A stretch of DNA of 64,000 nt, taken from NCBI GenBank assembly GCA_964518885.1, contig CAZFHW010000001.1:685-64684 (forward strand). Reading direction: 5' to 3'. Position 1 is the stretch's first letter. Every line of letters begins with the position of its first letter. A program made the position numbers and the translations under genes. The notes beneath the pieces were generated by a model that ran no database searches, was not told where the DNA came from, and worked only from the letters and a program-made list of their open reading frames with translations. Of the stretch, positions 33,909-64,000 are shown in pieces. Source of the stretch: an uncultured Parvibaculum sp. GTDB taxonomy: Bacteria; Pseudomonadota; Alphaproteobacteria; Parvibaculales; Parvibaculaceae.

Positions 33909-34481
33909 TCAAAAATAGCGAATAGACATGATAATGGGCGCGCACCACAACAGACGATCTATGTACCTTTCCTTGGAACCGGGTTGGAGCGGCACCAGGC
34001 AGTACCGCTTGGAATTTTTTGGACCACGAACAAGACGCCGCAACAAGACGGTGCCGTCTTTAAGTCCAACGAGGCAATCGCGGCCAAATCCCTGCTCCAG
34101 TTTTTCGTTTTCGAAACGCGCACCAACCAGTAACTCTCCTGATCGAAAGGGGCCGTGATCCTGTGTAAGACGGACGGCTACCGGACGGACGGCCGGAACG
34201 CGCAAGACAAAACCATCAGTATTTTCAACGGATTTAGACGATACAGTCCCATCTGCTTCGACCCGACCCAGCATCTCAATCCGCTCTGGAGAAGGTTCGT
34301 CAATCAGGTCACTCATCGGAACTTGCAAGATCGTTGCGAGTGGTTGTAGCCAATCCACCGATATCCTAATTCCCTCGGTTTCAAGCCGCGAAATGGTCGC
34401 TGCTGTGGTCCCGAGCCTGTCGGCGAGGTCAGTCTGCGTGATCCCCATCTGTCGCCGGTAGTGTCGAATTCTGTTTTTCAC
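33909..34481 (-). CDS. rogA: XRE-family repressor with S24-like C-terminus (RogA-like GTA repressor)
   Basis: NRIRHYRRQMGITQTDLADRLGTTAATISRLE HTH; divergent from the gafY/gafZ-like genes as in Caulobacter. Confidence 0.7.
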   Translation of the reverse strand: MKNRIRHYRRQMGITQTDLADRLGTTAATISRLETEGIRISVDWLQPLATILQVPMSDLIDEPSPERIEMLGRVEADGTVSSKSVENTDGFVLRVPAVRPVAVRLTQDHGPFRSGELLVGARFENEKLEQGFGRDCLVGLKDGTVLLRRLVRGPKNSKRYCLVPLQPGSKERYIDRLLWCAPIIMSIRYF

Positions 34482-34642: not shown

Positions 34643-35077
34643 ATGCTTGAATTGCCCTCAAATGCTTTATGCGAACGCGACGAAAAACTAACACGACAAG
34701 GTATTTTGACCACAAAGGCGGCGGCACGCCGAGCGGCGGTCTGGTCCCAACAAGTCGCGGAAATCAAGCTGACCTGTGATGTTGTTGCGAGAGTTTACAA
34801 TATTTTGCCTGCAGCGCTTTATTCGCCTACACGCGGCGAGGCATATGTCGCCCATGCTCGCCAGTTGGCTATGTATCTTGCTCATGTGACGTTCGGCCTC
34901 AGCCTTGGGGCGGTAGGGCGTCATTTTAGACGAGACAGAACCACCGCAGCCTATGGTTGCCGTCAGGTTGAAGATCGGCGCGATAATCCCAGTTTTGATT
35001 TCATGCTGGACCGTCTGGAACAAGCCCTAGCGATTTTGTCTGCCGTCCGCTTTGGAACGTCTCAGAAAATGCAATAG
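34643..35077 (+). CDS. gafY: DnaA domain IV-like HTH protein (GafY-like GTA activator)
   Basis: TRGEAYVAHARQLAMYLAHV..GLSL..VGRHFRRDRTTAAYGCRQVEDRRD; RBS AGGAGG. Confidence 0.8.
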   Translation: MLELPSNALCERDEKLTRQGILTTKAAARRAAVWSQQVAEIKLTCDVVARVYNILPAALYSPTRGEAYVAHARQLAMYLAHVTFGLSLGAVGRHFRRDRTTAAYGCRQVEDRRDNPSFDFMLDRLEQALAILSAVRFGTSQKMQ

Positions 35078-35088
35078 GGGAATGGGCT

Positions 35089-35973
35089 ATGGAAATCGCT
35101 GCGGGAGAACTACGTCGGGAGGGTTTGCGGCTTTTTCGACGTCTGAGGGAGCCGGGGCATTATGTCCGGCATTTGGATGACGGTAAGCCGCAAGAGGCAT
35201 CAGGGGCCTTGTTTGGTCCCCGTAATAGCTGGCGCCATCCGGTCTTGAGGGTAGATATGAGGATCGTTAGTGCGTTGCACAGGACGGATCTCTTGCGGCG
35301 CGAAGTAGCCTATGTGCCAGCGCAGGGCTTAGAAAGCGTTCCAGAATGTTACCTCGTCAGCGCAGCTGGTGAAGCGTGGTGGCGCAGGCAGGCTGGAGGC
35401 ACCGAGCCTTTTCGAGCCCAGCACCAGCTTTTAGGCGAGTGCGTGATTGAGGAGCCGGGGCGGGGCGTGGTGCGGCGCCAGGTCAATTTGGGGGAAACCC
35501 CCTTAGGGTGGCTCCGCAGACGCAAAGGGCCAGATGGTCGCCCCTTTTTGTCAGACATTGAAATGGAAGCGGGGGAACGATTGAGGCGCGACTATACGCT
35601 GGCCGCTCTCGGTTCCCGTGTTACTGCCGATTGGTCTGCGATGGCCGCTCACGTCGATCAAAGTAGATCTGGGCCTTCATCTGGGGGCGACGTATCTCTC
35701 GCGGCATTGGATGCCCGGCGGCGGGTAGAGCGCGCACTGGCCAGTGTGGGGCCAGGATTGGGCGATGTGCTTTTAGAGACGTGCTGCTATTTGTCAGGTC
35801 TGGAACAGGCGGAACAATTGCTTGGCTGGCCACAGCGGTCAGCAAAAATCGTGCTGAAAATTGCTCTGGCGCGCATTGCCATCCACTATGGCCTCGGGCT
35901 CACGGGGACACCAAAACAGGGGCTCCATGTCTGGCGGATGGGGGGAGACGGCAAACATCAGCACGGGAGGTGA
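35089..35973 (+). CDS. gafZ: DUF6456 protein (GafZ-like, GafA C-terminal homologue)
   Basis: ETPLGWLRRRKGPDGRPFL...AGERLRRDY, LGDVLLETCCYLSGLE.AE..LGWPQRSAKIVLKIAL. Confidence 0.85.
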   Translation: MEIAAGELRREGLRLFRRLREPGHYVRHLDDGKPQEASGALFGPRNSWRHPVLRVDMRIVSALHRTDLLRREVAYVPAQGLESVPECYLVSAAGEAWWRRQAGGTEPFRAQHQLLGECVIEEPGRGVVRRQVNLGETPLGWLRRRKGPDGRPFLSDIEMEAGERLRRDYTLAALGSRVTADWSAMAAHVDQSRSGPSSGGDVSLAALDARRRVERALASVGPGLGDVLLETCCYLSGLEQAEQLLGWPQRSAKIVLKIALARIAIHYGLGLTGTPKQGLHVWRMGGDGKHQHGR

Positions 35974-58309: not shown

Positions 58310-58846
58310 ATGACAGAGGACGACCCGAAGGTGATCCCGCCTGCGCGTGAGCCCGACTGGGCACACATTGCCCGCGTCTACCAAGGCGAGGAACCTCTGG
58401 AAAAGATCGCGGGTCACTACGGTCTCTCAGTACAAAAAGTCTCTGCTCATGCGCAAGCGCAGGGCTGGCCGTTGCGCAAGTACCGCAGTGCCCGGACTGA
58501 AAGTGCCACAGGACAGAAACGCCAGGACCTAGCAGCGTTGATACACCGCCTGACGGGCCTTGTGGAACGTCAGATCAAGGAAATTGAAACCAGACTTTGT
58601 GAAGCAGGGGAGGCGCGTGATCAGGAGCGCGACGCCCGAACGCTGTCCAATCTGACACGCACGCTCGACAAGCTGGTGGAACTGAAACGAGGCGCCGAGG
58701 ATGACAGGGCTGCCAAAGCGCAACGTGCCCGCGAAACGGCAAAACGAAAAGGAAGCAAGGCTGATGGAGAGGCAATGCGAGCCCATCTTGCACGCCGCCT
58801 GTTTCGGCTCGCTGCCCAAGCCAACAGTTCACGCGTTTCTGGATAG
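58310..58846 (+). CDS. GTA small terminase subunit (putative)
   Basis: N-terminal HTH (WAHIARVY.G..PL.KIA..YGLS), coiled coil, ERDARTLSNLTRTLDKLVEL; first gene of the cluster, overlapping terL. Confidence 0.7.
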   Translation: MTEDDPKVIPPAREPDWAHIARVYQGEEPLEKIAGHYGLSVQKVSAHAQAQGWPLRKYRSARTESATGQKRQDLAALIHRLTGLVERQIKEIETRLCEAGEARDQERDARTLSNLTRTLDKLVELKRGAEDDRAAKAQRARETAKRKGSKADGEAMRAHLARRLFRLAAQANSSRVSG

Positions 58847-60071
58847 CCTGTCGGGCAGAGAGCTTGCCTTTCTCGCCCACGATTGGCGCTTCTGGGCGCG
58901 TCCCTCACAATGTGAACCAGAAGGGTCGTGGACAACCTGGCTCATCCTGGGTGGACGCGGAGCGGGCAAAACCCGCGCCGGGGCGGAATGGGTGCGGGAA
59001 CAAGTCCAGTGCGGGAACGCGGGGCATCTGGCCTTGATCGGCGAGAGTTATGCCGAAGCACGCGAAGTGATGGTGGAAGGTATTGCCGGGCTGCGCGCGT
59101 TGGGACCGAGTGACGAGCGCCCGCGCTATGAAGCAACGCGGCGACGTCTGCTCTGGCCGAACGGCGCCGTGGCAACGCTCTTTTCCGCCAGCGACCCGGA
59201 GGGTCTGCGCGGGCCACAATTTGATGCCGCCTGGAGTGATGAGGCTGGCAAGTGGCCGGACGCCGAAGCCGCCTGGGCCATGTTGCAGTTTGGATTGCGT
59301 CTGGGGGAGCACCCAAGACAGGTGGTGACAACAACCCCGCGCGCTGTCCCGCTCATCAAGAAGCTGTTGGCCGACGACACGGTCCGCGTCACCCGCGCAA
59401 CGACGTACGACAATCGGGCGAACCTGGCAGACGCCTTCTTCTCGACGGTGATCAAAACCTATGAGGGAACAAGGCTCGGACGTCAGGAACTGGACGGTGA
59501 ATTGCTGGAGGATGATCCGGACGCCCTTTGGTCGCGGAGCATGATTGAGAAGACGCGCTGCGGCGCGGTTCCAGAACTGGTGCGCACAGTGGTGGGGGTG
59601 GATCCCCCGGCAACGTCCGGCGCGGGCGCGGACGAGTGCGGCATCGTGGTGGTTGGCATTGCGGCAGACGGTCGGTTTTACGTGTTGGCGGATCGCTCGC
59701 GCGGACGCCTGAAACCGGCAGACTGGGCGCGCCGGGTGGCGGGTGCATATGACGCGTTTGAAGCAGACCGCGTGGTGGCGGAGGTCAATCAGGGCGGCGA
59801 AATGGTAACCGCGGTGCTGCAGCAGGTGGCGCCTCATCTGCCTATCCGTCAGGTAAGGGCAACCCGGGGCAAGTGGGTGCGCGCAGAACCCATCGCAGCA
59901 CTTTACGAGCAGGGGCGGGTGCGCCACGCCAAGCCCTTTGCCGAACTGGAAGACCAATTGTGCAATTTCACCGGAACCGGAGGCAAAAGCCCCGACCGGC
60001 TGGACGCCCTCGTCTGGGCGATCACGGATTTGATGCGAGGGGCCGGCAACCCGACCATCAGGCGACTCTAA
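58764..60071 (+). CDS. terL: GTA large terminase (RcGTA g2 homologue)
   Basis: DWRFWARP.Q, GGRGAGKTRAGAEW, LRGPQFDAAWSDE, TTTPR, GVDPP, SPDRLDALVWA; start uncertain (58701/58764/58788). Confidence 0.92.
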   Translation: MERQCEPILHAACFGSLPKPTVHAFLDSLSGRELAFLAHDWRFWARPSQCEPEGSWTTWLILGGRGAGKTRAGAEWVREQVQCGNAGHLALIGESYAEAREVMVEGIAGLRALGPSDERPRYEATRRRLLWPNGAVATLFSASDPEGLRGPQFDAAWSDEAGKWPDAEAAWAMLQFGLRLGEHPRQVVTTTPRAVPLIKKLLADDTVRVTRATTYDNRANLADAFFSTVIKTYEGTRLGRQELDGELLEDDPDALWSRSMIEKTRCGAVPELVRTVVGVDPPATSGAGADECGIVVVGIAADGRFYVLADRSRGRLKPADWARRVAGAYDAFEADRVVAEVNQGGEMVTAVLQQVAPHLPIRQVRATRGKWVRAEPIAALYEQGRVRHAKPFAELEDQLCNFTGTGGKSPDRLDALVWAITDLMRGAGNPTIRRL

Positions 60072-60086
60072 CTCTAAGGGAACGCA

Positions 60087-61304
60087 ATGAACGAGACACA
60101 GACCGCAAACCAAACAGGAACGGGCCTCTGGCACCGCATGTTTGGACGGAGGAGCCAACAGCCCGGGCCTGTGCATGTGAAGGCGAGTGCAACCGGCTCG
60201 CTGATTGCCCTCAGTTCACTGGGACAACCGGTATGGACCCCGCGTGACTACGACCAGCTCGCCCGGGAAGGCTATGAGCAAAATGCGGTGGCCTTCCGCT
60301 GTGTCCGCATGATTGCCGAAGCGGCGGCATCCGTGCCGTGGCTTTTGTATGAAAGGGACCGCGAGCTTGAGGTGCACCCGTTGCTCACGCTTTTGCAGCG
60401 ACCTAATCCGGGGGAGGGAGGTGCCGACCTGCTGGAAGCCTGGTACGGATATTTGCAGGTTTCCGGCAATGCCTATCTGGAAGCGGTTCGCATTGGAGAG
60501 CAGGTGCGCGAGCTTCATGTTCTGCGGCCCGACCGGATGAAAGTTGTGCCAGGCCAGCGCGGTTGGCCGGAGGCTTACGAATATACCGTCAATGGGCGGA
60601 CGGTGCGGTTCCTCGATGAGCCGGACCATCCAATCCTGCATCTCAAAGCCTTTCACCCGACCGACGATCACTATGGCCTTTCCCCCCTGGAAGCCGCCGC
60701 GAGGGCGATAGACATTCACAATGCCGCGGGCGCCTGGAACAAGGCGCTGCTCGACAATTCGGCGCGTCCTTCCGGGGCCTTGATCTACAAAGGCGCGAAC
60801 GGGGACCAGACCCTGACGAACGAACAGTTCGATCGTCTGAAGCTTGAGTTGGAAGAAAACTATTCCGGTGCGGGAAATGCCGGGCGCCCGCTGCTGCTGG
60901 AAGGCGGGCTGGATTGGAAACAGATGGGGCTTGCGCCCAAGGATCTGGATTTCAACGAGACGAAAAATTCGGCGGCGCGTGAAATTGCTCTGGCCTTCGG
61001 GGTGCCGCCCATGTTGTTGGGTATTCCCGGCGACAACACGTTTGCCAATTACAAGGAGGCAAATCTGGTGCTGTGGCGTCAGACCATCCTGCCGCTGGTG
61101 CGCAAAACCGTGACCGCCCTGTCCAACTGGCTGGTGCCGCGCTTTGGCGAGGGGCTGCGCCTTGATGTGGATCTCGACGCCGTGCCCGCCCTGGGTGTTG
61201 AGCGCGACGGCCTGTGGGCACGTCTGAAGGATGCAGACTTTCTGAGTGAAGACGAGAAACGCGCTGTCGTTGGCTATGAACCTCGAAGGCGGACCTCATC
61301 ATGA
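60087..61304 (+). CDS. GTA portal protein (HK97 family, g3)
   Basis: WTPRDY..LAREGY..N.V..RCVRMIAEAA, LRPDRM, GLSPLEAA, NAGRPLLLEGGLDWK, TYANYKEAN-like motif. Confidence 0.93.
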   Translation: MNETQTANQTGTGLWHRMFGRRSQQPGPVHVKASATGSLIALSSLGQPVWTPRDYDQLAREGYEQNAVAFRCVRMIAEAAASVPWLLYERDRELEVHPLLTLLQRPNPGEGGADLLEAWYGYLQVSGNAYLEAVRIGEQVRELHVLRPDRMKVVPGQRGWPEAYEYTVNGRTVRFLDEPDHPILHLKAFHPTDDHYGLSPLEAAARAIDIHNAAGAWNKALLDNSARPSGALIYKGANGDQTLTNEQFDRLKLELEENYSGAGNAGRPLLLEGGLDWKQMGLAPKDLDFNETKNSAAREIALAFGVPPMLLGIPGDNTFANYKEANLVLWRQTILPLVRKTVTALSNWLVPRFGEGLRLDVDLDAVPALGVERDGLWARLKDADFLSEDEKRAVVGYEPRRRTSS

Positions 61305-61603: not shown

Positions 61604-61636
61604 GGCGCTTTTCGATAGGTGAAGAGCGCCTTTTTT
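61604..61636 (+). terminator. Intrinsic terminator inside the GTA operon
   Basis: GGCGCTTTTC-GATAGGT-GAAGAGCGCC (10 bp, one G.U) followed by TTTTTT, 15 nt before the protease ATG. Confidence 0.8.
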
Positions 61637-61651
61637 GTGACTGGGAGAAAC

Positions 61652-62353
61652 ATGCAGACACATCGGTCAATCGACCCAGAGCTGAAATCGGAACAGGGAC
61701 CAGGAGAAACCAAACGGGCGTCATTCAATATTGAACATGTGGATGAAGCTGGCGCCTTCGAAGGTTATGCCAGTCTTTTTGGAGCCGAAGATCTGGGTCA
61801 CGATCTTGTTCAGCGCGGTGCCTTTCGCGCGAGCCTTCTCAAACGGGGCGCGGCGGGTGTGCGGATGCTGTTTCAGCACGATCCGGGCGCACCCATTGGT
61901 GTGTGGGATGAAATTCGAGAGGATGCGCGCGGGCTTTATGTGCGCGGTCGCCTCACCCTTGATGTGGCTCGCGCCCGCGAAGTTCATGCGCTCATGAAAG
62001 CCGGCGCGCTGGATGGACTGTCCATCGGGTTTCATACGGTGACAGCTGTGCGTGATGCCGGAACAGGTATCCGACGGTTGCTCGAGATAGATTTATGGGA
62101 AATTTCCATTGTGACTTTCCCCATGCAGCCCGGTGCGCGGGTGGCCACGGTAAAGGCCGGGGTCCTGCCAACGGCGCGAGAACTCGAACGCTGGCTCCTG
62201 CGGGATGCAGGCTTCAGCAGACACCAGGCCCGCGCGTTGATTGCGGGTGGATATAAGGCGGCACTGACCCCGCGGGATGCGGGCCCAGCCGACGTCGACC
62301 TTGCTGGCCTTGCCCGGACCATTCGGGTCGCGGGCGAGTGCTTTCTTCATTGA
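61652..62353 (+). CDS. GTA prohead protease (HK97 family, g4)
   Basis: FEGYASLFG..DLG.D.VQRGAF, MLFQHD, EDARGLYVRGRL, DGLSIGF, LWEISIVTFPM. Confidence 0.93.
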   Translation: MQTHRSIDPELKSEQGPGETKRASFNIEHVDEAGAFEGYASLFGAEDLGHDLVQRGAFRASLLKRGAAGVRMLFQHDPGAPIGVWDEIREDARGLYVRGRLTLDVARAREVHALMKAGALDGLSIGFHTVTAVRDAGTGIRRLLEIDLWEISIVTFPMQPGARVATVKAGVLPTARELERWLLRDAGFSRHQARALIAGGYKAALTPRDAGPADVDLAGLARTIRVAGECFLH

Positions 62354-62398
62354 CCTTGAAACCAGTCACAACACGTCGCGATGACGAAGGAGACGACT

Positions 62399-63739
62399 AT
62401 GCCTCTCATGAGGAAGAGCAATGTGGGCCGCATCGGCCATACGTTGAACACCCAAACCTCCCACCCCAACGGCCGAACCCGCCAAAAGGGGGCGCCGGAG
62501 CGAAAGAGTACCGATCTGGGAAGCCCGGCGGTGCACGATGTACGGGATGCTTTTGATGAATTCATGACCCGCTTCGAAAGCTTCAAGCAGGCCAATGATG
62601 ATCGGCTGCGGGAGCTCGAACAAAAAAAGACGGCGGATGTGGTCACCGTTGAAAAAGTAGACCGCCTGAACGCGGCACTCGATCTGCAGCAGAAAACGGT
62701 GGATGGTCTCGCTCTCTCGCTTTCTCGGCCAGAAAGGGGCGAGCTCTCGACCCTGACCCCGGCGTCACGCGACCACAAAATGGCGTTCGACACCTATGTG
62801 CGTCGCGGCGAGACGGGCACGTTACGCGCGCTGGAGGCAAAAGCACTGAGTGCGCAGTCAGACCCAGATGGCGGTTATCTGGTGCCATCAGAAACCGAAC
62901 GCCTGATCGACCGGGTGGTCTCGGAAGCATCGCCCATTCGCACTATTGCCGGTGTCCGGCAGATCGGCGCGGCATCTTACAAGAAACCGTTTGCAACCAC
63001 AGGGGCCGCAACCGGCTGGGTGGGCGAAACTGAACCGCGCGCGCAGACCGACGGCCCCAGGATTTCCGAACTCGAATTTCCGGTGATGGAACTCTATGCC
63101 ATGCCAGCGGCCACCTCGACGCTGCTGGACGACAATGCCGTCAATCTGGACCAGTGGATCGCCGAGGAAGTCCAAACCGCTTTTGCGGAACAGGAAGGTG
63201 CTGCCTTTGTGTCCGGGGATGGGGTGCGCAAACCGCGCGGGTTCCTCTCCTATGACACCGTCGACAATGCGAGCTGGGCCTGGGGCAAGGTTGGTTACAT
63301 CGCAACGGGCGCATCGGGCGCCTTCCCGGTGAACAACCCTTCTGATGTGCTGCTCGACCTAGTCTATGCGGTGAAGTCCGGCTACCGGGCCAATGCGCAT
63401 TTTGTCATGAACCGGCAGACCCAGTCTCAGATCCGCAAGTTCAAGGACGCCGACGGCCACTATCTCTGGCAGCCAAGTCTTGCGGCGGGCGAAGCTCCAA
63501 GACTGATGAATGTCCCCATCGCGGAAGCTGAAGACATGCCCGATGTCGGAGCCGACGCCTTTTCCATGGCCTATGGCGATTTCCGGCGGGGATATCTGAT
63601 TGTGGACCGGCTGGGCATTCGGGTTCTGCGCGATCCCTATTCCGCAAAACCCTATGTCCTTTTCTACACCACCAAACGTGTTGGCGGCGGCATCCAGAAT
63701 TTCGAAGCCATCAAGCTTCTGAAATTCGGCACATCATAA
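62399..63739 (+). CDS. GTA major capsid protein (HK97 fold, g5)
   Basis: DGGYLV, SPIRTIA, FPVMELYAMPAAT..LLDD, GDG..KPRGFL, LRDPYSAKPYVLFYTTKRVGG; RBS AAGGAG before ATG 62399. Confidence 0.95.
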   Translation: MPLMRKSNVGRIGHTLNTQTSHPNGRTRQKGAPERKSTDLGSPAVHDVRDAFDEFMTRFESFKQANDDRLRELEQKKTADVVTVEKVDRLNAALDLQQKTVDGLALSLSRPERGELSTLTPASRDHKMAFDTYVRRGETGTLRALEAKALSAQSDPDGGYLVPSETERLIDRVVSEASPIRTIAGVRQIGAASYKKPFATTGAATGWVGETEPRAQTDGPRISELEFPVMELYAMPAATSTLLDDNAVNLDQWIAEEVQTAFAEQEGAAFVSGDGVRKPRGFLSYDTVDNASWAWGKVGYIATGASGAFPVNNPSDVLLDLVYAVKSGYRANAHFVMNRQTQSQIRKFKDADGHYLWQPSLAAGEAPRLMNVPIAEAEDMPDVGADAFSMAYGDFRRGYLIVDRLGIRVLRDPYSAKPYVLFYTTKRVGGGIQNFEAIKLLKFGTS

Positions 63740-63750
63740 GGAGGTTCTTC

Positions 63751-64000
63751 ATGCGTGATCTTCATTCAAACCTCGGTCTCATCCAGACCCTCGACCCGGC
63801 GGTGACAAGCGCAAGCCGGGCGGGTGCCCCTGTCGACCGACAGGGCTTTGAAAGCGTGGAGCATGTCGTGCTCATCGGCATCAGTGGTGACACTCTGTCC
63901 GGGGTGAATTCGATCTCCCTGCAGCTCGACGAGAGCGAAGACGGCAGCAGTTGGTCACCCGTCATCAATGACAGTCATGTGCTGGGCGCCTCCATTGACG
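63751..64000 (+). CDS. Putative capsid cement/decoration protein (3' truncated by window)
   Basis: RBS AAGGAGG; MRDLHSNLGLIQTLDPAV...VDRQGFESVEHVVLIG...LQLDESEDGSSWSPV...VLG; open to window end; not in ORF track. Confidence 0.6.
   Translation, partial: MRDLHSNLGLIQTLDPAVTSASRAGAPVDRQGFESVEHVVLIGISGDTLSGVNSISLQLDESEDGSSWSPVINDSHVLGASID

Follow-up and report, generated by a model that had tools for sequence, protein, structure and literature searches.

A candidate jelly-roll capsid cement gene between the major capsid and adaptor genes of an RcGTA-like cluster in Parvibaculaceae

The heads of GTAs are known structurally from RcGTA alone, which carries spikes and for which no cement protein has been described. 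A term search of the RcGTA structure paper returned no mention of cement or decoration, and the same paper gives the determinants of the oblate shape of this head as not known (PMC7296036). Among phages, Bbp16 of BPP-1 forms dimers by beta-sheet augmentation, which sit on the icosahedral and local two-fold axes in a 1:1 ratio with the major capsid protein (MCP). It is present in 7 copies per asymmetric unit, contacts the MCP through its N- and C-terminal arms and one loop, and is needed for infectious particles (PMC3863775). In phage 7-7-1, dimers of gp002 bridge pentamer-hexamer interfaces (PMC12796354), while gp49 of A1002 is a jelly-roll cement protein that forms a trimer on the three-fold axes (PMC13730344).

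The DNA analysed here, referred to as the window, is a stretch of 64,000 nt (G000:C1:685-64684) from an uncultured Parvibaculum sp. Its end holds the start of a gene, X, which is one additional gene, standing between g5 and g6, in a cluster that otherwise conforms to the canonical RcGTA-like order. Read directly from the sequence, the TAA stop codon of the MCP gene (g5) lies at 63737-63739 and the ATG of X follows 11 nt further, at 63751. A first, sequence-only reading of this DNA had reported a strong ribosome-binding site and an open frame missing from its ORF track. Both were found as described: a GGAGG motif lies 6 nt before the ATG, and translation from 63751 gives MRDLHSNL...VDRQGFESV...LQLDESEDGSSWSPV..., in agreement with the peptide quoted at the time. 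X is absent from the list of closed ORFs because its frame stays open to the end of the window. The placement of the GGAGG motif suggests that one operon transcript would serve for the translation of both the MCP and X.

Contig C1 stops 84 nt past the window, which leaves 111 aa of X on that contig. The last 55 nt of C1 match the first 55 nt of contig C184 exactly, as is typical of an assembler k-mer overlap, and joining the two gives an ORF of 143 aa (432 nt including the stop codon) that runs from C1 into C184. Exactly these 143 aa are encoded, as P0001, on L003, an independent metagenome contig of 10.9 kb that spans the junction unbroken. X is an acidic protein of ~14.7 kDa with 44 close homologues of 126-151 aa, and an exhaustive profile search at E<=1e-3 extended the family to 2,230 representative clusters, counted at 50% identity. 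The GTA cluster in this MAG is split over at least four contigs (C1, C184, C270 and C275), and L003 differs from the MAG by 1-2% over the same region; the divergence and the breakage suggest that strain variants were co-assembled here.

Genes of the cluster follow the canonical g1-g15 order, with a short tape-measure gene and GTA-specific domains (Table 1). The end of the cluster is intact in L005, a relative that is 92-96% identical, where g14 (NlpC/P60) is followed by g15, a protein of 1317 aa with GTA_TIM, Phage-tail_3 and Rcc01698_C domains, and then by a DUF2793 protein. Pieces of g14 and g15 from the genome studied here were found on contigs C184, C270 and C275. In a sequence search of the PDB, the best solved relative of the MCP was RcGTA Rcc01687 (E=5.8e-99); this MCP is the presumed binding partner of X. 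At the other end of the cluster, the longest ORF for the large terminase (TerL) and the g1-position ORF share 146 nt (58701-58846). The gene call on L003 starts TerL 29 codons later than the longest ORF, and the true start probably lies further downstream than the longest ORF would place it.

Table 1 Features of the window and of the adjoining contig C184 that relate to the GTA cluster
Feature	Position	Strand	Evidence and remarks
XRE repressor gene	33909-34481	-	divergent from the gafYZ-like pair
gafY-like (144 aa) and gafZ-like (294 aa) pair	34643..35973	+	Bac_DnaA_C; DUF6456
g1-position ORF, 183 aa	58295..58846	+	no Pfam match; overlaps the TerL start
g2, large terminase	58701..60071	+	Terminase_6N and Terminase_6C
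g3, portal protein	60087..61304	+	Phage_portal, E=9e-92
g3.5-position small ORF, 91 aa	61301..61576	+	conserved across Parvibaculaceae clusters
g4, prohead serine protease	61619..62353	+	Peptidase_S78
g5, HK97-fold major capsid protein, 452 aa including N-terminal delta/scaffold region	62381..63739	+	Phage_capsid, E=2e-87
Shine-Dalgarno sequence GGAGG	63740..63744	+	directly after the MCP stop codon, 6 nt upstream of the X ATG
Gene X, first 250 nt (83 codons)	63751..64000	+	candidate capsid cement/decoration gene, jelly-roll; 143 aa when whole
g6, 183 aa, gene after X	on C184		Phage_connect_1; RcGTA adaptor Rcc01688, E=1.6e-15
g7	on C184		Phage_HCP
g8	on C184		Tail_completion_gp17
g9, tail tube gene	on C184		Phage_tail_2
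g10	on C184		Phage_TAC_11 ('GTA-gp10')
g11, 217-aa ORF	on C184		no Pfam match
g12	on C184		DUF2460
g13	on C184		phiJL001-gp84/BR0599 hub

Across 28 Parvibaculaceae loci X was found at the same chromosomal site, after the MCP gene, a pattern of vertical inheritance at a fixed position between host genes. The PBP1a(-)/CxxCxxCC genes precede the cluster in 17 of the 17 Parvibaculaceae loci that reach far enough upstream, and one further locus, which reaches only the CxxCxxCC gene, has that gene in place. In the window, a pair of genes with Bac_DnaA_C and DUF6456 domains, which we take to be the domains of GafY and GafZ respectively, sits 24 kb upstream of the GTA cluster. Together with the divergent XRE gene, the pair fits a GafYZ-type activator module, and its products are candidate GTA activators. 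The same cluster is found in culturable relatives, for example Parvibaculum sedimenti HXT-9 (L018) and P. lavamentivorans. In some loci of Parvibaculum proper (L018:12562-15822, also L024 and L028) the spacing between g10 and g11 is 3-4.6 kb, as against ~0.2 kb in the clade of the window; in L018 this gap holds about five plus-strand ORFs of 116-255 aa, for which a weak match to MalM was the sole Pfam match.

The structure of X was modelled with AF2 from an alignment of 44 sequences. The model is an all-beta jelly-roll (pLDDT 91.1, pTM 0.84) with seven strands of at least three residues, and together with Foldseek it describes X as a single beta jelly-roll domain, within the size range (about 130-145 aa) of the BPP-1, Carin-1 and 7-7-1 cement class. 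Its N-terminal ten residues were modelled with lower confidence than the core and are as conserved as the core strands (3.28 versus 3.27-3.50 bits). When the model was compared with the PDB using Foldseek, the first-ranked match was 3j4u_H, the 'cementing protein' of BPP-1 (E=1.5e-4, TM 0.50/0.51). Foldseek also found 8cjz_A from the capsid of Carin-1 (TM 0.49/0.53) and 9hz8_0 (TM 0.55/0.57), a 135-aa chain of phage 7-7-1 whose length equals that of the decoration protein gp002. Near-equal scores were returned for many generic jelly-rolls (CBM32, Eph ligand-binding domains and plant-virus coats), and because the cement matches, at TM ~0.5, sit among these, the fold of X alone is not specific. 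Closer matches were seen in BFVD, to uncharacterised phage proteins of 131-145 aa (TM 0.7-0.79).

To this, sequence profiles add a more definite set of relatives. A profile of the 44 homologues found the 'Capsid Decoration Protein' of Carin-1 in the PDB at E=0.011, and a family profile of 141 sequences (A2), searched against the whole PDB, gave only two significant matches: one at E=2.8e-5 to the Carin-1 decoration protein and one at E=1.5e-3 to the BPP-1 cementing protein. In hhalign, A2 aligned with a Bbp16 alignment (A3) over 87 columns with 87.5% probability (E=3.6e-6), and Bbp16 was the sole Pfam family to recur among members of the X family. Full-length X scored 15.5 bits (E=0.023) against the Pfam model for Bbp16, PF21190, below its gathering threshold of 27.1 bits. 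This cut-off was reached by no member: any match at all was seen in 6 of the 44 close homologues (best E=1e-3) and in 9 of the 141 (best E=2e-4). Pairwise BLASTP gave no match between X and Bbp16. NCBIfam holds no family for X, for its relatives or for Bbp16 itself, and in PHROGs X matches phrog_5707 alone, a family of unknown function. Because the PF21190 threshold was never reached, we place X in a sister family of Bbp16 rather than within PF21190, and on these sequence comparisons the X family is treated as a distant, unannotated sister family. The resemblance to Bbp16 suggested by the sequence-only reading is thus upheld by profile-level homology and by the fold match to BPP-1, but it does not extend to membership of PF21190. 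Two other comparisons can be mentioned here: X gave no match to the RcGTA head-spike base Rcc01079, and a match of the C1 fragment of X to Phage_tail_2 (E=0.15) was rejected, as g9, the tail tube gene, lies on C184 and the predicted fold of X is a jelly-roll.

The extra gene first noticed at this one locus proved to recur in Parvibaculaceae and in L087, while g5 is joined directly to g6, without X, in ten or more RcGTA-like clusters that have short tail modules (gaps of 6-241 bp). Other clusters carry different genes at this junction. At L095:7229-9575 (-) (G025) and L098:7106-9830 (-) (G205), the g5|g6 gap holds a small ORF and then an ORF of 691-832 aa. The small ORF of L095 (88 aa) is a homologue of Rcc01079 (E=3.8e-10), which places head-spike genes inside the cluster, whereas in RcGTA they are encoded at a distant locus; the 691-aa ORF of L095 has Laminin_G_3 and SASA (sialate O-acetylesterase-type) domains, and the 91-aa ORF of L098 resembles the 88-aa ORF by eye. 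In another GTA lineage (G306/G165), a 2.7-kb insertion with five ORFs (123 aa, 138-147 aa, 363-394 aa, 130 aa and 91-93 aa) occupies the junction, at L096:4672-7246 (-) and L102:6231-8927 (+). In L096, the 91-aa ORF matches the fibre-tail adaptor Gp77 of podophage GP4 above the cut-off (E=3e-25), the 130-aa ORF weakly resembles Gp80, a fibre protein of GP4, without reaching the cut-off (E=4.6e-4), and the 363-aa ORF has a sub-threshold match to Laminin_G_3. The g5|g6 junction is a slot whose content of head-surface genes varies between lineages, from cement to spike base and fibre or GP4-type fibre parts.

Two ORFs near this junction were also considered as divergent copies of X. Neither the 123-aa ORF downstream of the MCP gene in L096/L102 nor the 89-aa ORF that follows X in L032 gave any signal. 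An X-sized gap in L100 was ruled out as an insertion, the gap being the C-terminal piece of a split MCP gene. At this locus (L100:5910-7404; G122, X-negative) the MCP gene lies in two frames, with the C-terminal 78 aa as a separate ORF, which points to decay of this GTA by frameshift or else to an error in the sequence.

The genome studied here has homologues of the head-spike genes, away from the GTA cluster. On contig C54:8475-9988 (= L146:2976-4489, -) there are adjacent homologues of the spike base (90 aa, E=1.4e-12 versus Rcc01079) and of the head-spike fibre (413 aa, E=4.8e-7). Because the spikes are encoded separately on C54, X would come on top of RcGTA-type spikes rather than take their place.

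Taken together, these data indicate that X is probably a jelly-roll head accessory of an RcGTA-like GTA and a remote homologue of the Bbp16/Carin-1/7-7-1 class of cement proteins. The original suggestion of a probable capsid cement or decoration gene is, as a prediction, supported by homology and by context. We propose that X would be translated with the MCP from one operon and would bind the outer surface of the HK97-fold shell between capsomers. By analogy with BPP-1 and 7-7-1, it would most likely form dimers that straddle the two-fold and quasi-two-fold axes, with about one copy of X per MCP. Such dimers would clamp adjacent capsomers non-covalently, so that the head could withstand DNA packaging and life outside the cell. 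The centres of the pentamers would probably be taken separately by RcGTA-type head spikes, because the genome encodes spike base and fibre homologues elsewhere. The conserved N-terminal arm is a small detail that, by comparison with Bbp16, would be consistent with a dimer clamp. An arrangement of X as a trimer on the three-fold axes, as in A1002 gp49, is also possible.

A capsid-attached X could instead have adhesion as its main job, with a lectin-like binding of polysaccharide on the surface of recipient cells, similar to that of Hoc-type decoration proteins or of the RcGTA spikes. Carbohydrate-binding jelly-rolls (CBM32, BC2L-C lectin, F5/8 type C) are among the near-equal fold matches, weak F5_F8_type_C matches occur in 11 of the 44 X family members (best E=0.035), and the Laminin_G_3 and SASA esterase genes found in other clusters show that the g5|g6 junction can carry genes of the adhesion type. 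Every CBM match to X is below threshold, however, and the only significant sequence relatives with solved structures are cement or decoration proteins that bridge capsomers, while the genome already has the spike base and fibre homologues for attachment. We consider a primary role in adhesion unlikely.

X could also act during assembly, as a chaperone or external scaffold for the procapsid or for head shape, and be missing from the mature particle. Its place within the head-morphogenesis block would suit such a role, as would the fact that what sets the oblate shape of the RcGTA head is given as not known in the structure paper (PMC7296036). Against this, the MCP has an N-terminal delta-type region of its own and the prohead protease is present, and the solved relatives of X are all components of mature capsids, which makes an assembly factor of this kind quite improbable.

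The preferred reading, a structural component of the head, can be compared with the position, the selection and the co-inheritance of the gene. Wherever both were located, X or its homologue follows the MCP gene: in Parvibaculaceae, in other Alphaproteobacteria, in a planctomycete, in a Flavobacteriaceae MAG and in two cultured phages, Azospirillum Cd (gp34) and Rhizobium RHph_X2_25. The alphaproteobacterial X loci outside Parvibaculaceae are prophage-like elements. Median dN/dS across the 28 orthologues was 0.25 for X, compared with 0.15 for the MCP and 0.33 for g6; X is under purifying selection. Among 73 Parvibaculaceae genomes, 54 have both X and the GTA tail gene g12 and 14 have neither, with g12 only in 4 and X only in 1 (Fisher p=1e-10). 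Two of the 4 g12-only genomes have a shorter type of g12 and the other two are 57-79% complete; the X-only genome is 83% complete. Of the loci with X after an MCP gene, the contig of the Flavobacteriaceae MAG (L035, JBFWXZ010000042.1) stands out for its host. It encodes a homologue of X and an MCP 50% identical to that of the window, and in the MCP tree as well as the X tree it forms a tight group with elements of Mesorhizobium and Pseudolabrys; it may reflect a binning error or a cross-phylum phage.

These observations bear on whether X might be a moron-like passenger gene with no role in the particle, carried in a permissive intergenic slot. The junction clearly does permit insertions of several kinds. 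Nevertheless, the purifying selection on X is comparable to that on structural genes, it is strictly linked to an MCP gene in different phyla as well as in cultured phages, it disappears where the GTA is lost, and it is homologous to capsid proteins, so that we regard a mere passenger as highly improbable. That X is the head-tail adaptor g6, expected in this place from the canonical RcGTA order and named by the sequence-only reading as the finding that would overturn its proposal, can be practically dismissed: nothing favours it except that X is the first gene after the MCP gene, it is the next gene downstream that matches Rcc01688 (Table 1), and X has a jelly-roll fold and no adaptor match in Pfam or Foldseek.

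The distribution of X was followed more widely in 401 sampled alphaproteobacterial genomes, of which 42 have X-family genes and 68 have g12. In 11 genomes, which represent at least five families, X is no more than 6 kb upstream of g12, and two further genomes have it at 9-10 kb. The core RcGTA-like clade of the MCP tree comprises 21 rows (support 100/97), 12 of them X-negative and 9 X-positive, the latter being Parvibaculaceae (8) and L087, which has the same PBP1a/CxxCxxCC flank as Parvibaculaceae. The sister clade of the core is entirely X-positive, and the remaining clades are mostly so, in a sampling of loci that is biased in that X-positive loci were found via X and X-negative loci via g12. 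The pattern of the MCP tree would fit an ancestral presence of X followed by repeated loss. The X tree has a backbone without resolution at depth and places the X of L087 away from that of Parvibaculaceae; given this tree, re-acquisition of X is a possible alternative to ancestral retention. A shorter g12/g13 type, with a g12 of 585 nt, occurs in many genomes that have no RcGTA-like MCP gene nearby, for example in L115 (G010:C1:2527110-2540694), in four copies in G151 and as one extra copy in a Parvibaculaceae genome; it probably marks a separate element of phage origin that has the distal tail module in common.

A broader conjecture, which we put forward as doubtful, is that cement was part of the phage head module ancestral to RcGTA-like agents and that X sets the geometry or capacity of the head, with X-retaining heads being reinforced and holding longer DNA. 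If this were so, lineages that kept X (such as Parvibaculaceae and L087) could build a regular icosahedral or larger head, those that lost it, such as the line to RcGTA, would have come to build the small oblate one, and X would be a genetic marker that predicts the cargo size of GTAs across Alphaproteobacteria. The idea of the sequence-only reading that a cemented capsid could make the GTA head more stable or alter its size, and with it the length of the DNA fragments, is likewise speculative.

A jelly-roll cement protein encoded beside the MCP gene is of a well-known kind, to which X adds a new, distant member whose family is without annotation. In the literature covered, which is incomplete, no description was found of a cement-type gene in a GTA cluster, and a term search of GTA papers, including PMC7296036, found no mention of such a gene. 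That the GTA operon of a whole family, and of some other alphaproteobacterial lineages, holds a conserved, selected cement-type gene suggests that GTA heads differ in how they are built. X offers a way into the questions of what stabilises domesticated capsids and whether lineages differ in head capacity, and the variable g5|g6 slot should help in the annotation of GTA clusters and in telling them apart from prophages. For the family as a whole, with its about 2,230 clusters and no function in Pfam, NCBIfam or PHROGs, we suggest the provisional name of distant Bbp16-like capsid cement/decoration proteins.

Compared with the named systems, X is close to Bbp16 of BPP-1 (PDB 3J4U; PF21190) in size (143 versus 140 aa), and Bbp16 is likewise a jelly-roll, of eight strands with short terminal arms. 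The gene bbp16 lies directly downstream of the BPP-1 MCP gene bbp17, just as X follows g5. The dimers, the 1:1 stoichiometry and the essentiality are established for Bbp16 only (PMC3863775) and not for X, and BPP-1 is a T=7 podovirus whose MCP has a permuted HK97 topology, unlike the MCP here, which is close to that of RcGTA. The decoration protein of Carin-1, a phage of Cobetia marina (PDB 8CJZ), is the best sequence-profile match to X in the PDB. The spike base in the Carin-1 capsid is a homologue of Rcc01079, and the present genome encodes one too, so that this solved capsid holds homologues of both accessory proteins of this genome, X and the spike base. Carin-1 differs in being a lytic podovirus, and its MCP is absent from the PDB matches of the window MCP at E<=1e-5. 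Agrobacterium phage 7-7-1 (PDB 9HZ8) shares with this system an alphaproteobacterial host, and its gp002, of 135 aa, is beta-rich and encoded next to the MCP gene (PMC12796354), as X is. Phage 7-7-1 is nevertheless a T=9 myovirus with additional linker proteins, and gp002 gave no match to the X family at the sequence level. For RcGTA itself (PDB 6TB9/6TBA; head spike Rcc01079/Rcc01080), the consecutive locus tags Rcc01687 and Rcc01688 mean that no gene is annotated between the MCP and the adaptor. X is missing from RcGTA and from at least ten further RcGTA-like clusters, so the gene is not required for this type of head generally. The MCP, adaptor, spike base and spike fibre of the RcGTA head all have homologues here, and the two clusters share the g1-g15 order, with X standing between g5 and g6 in this one.
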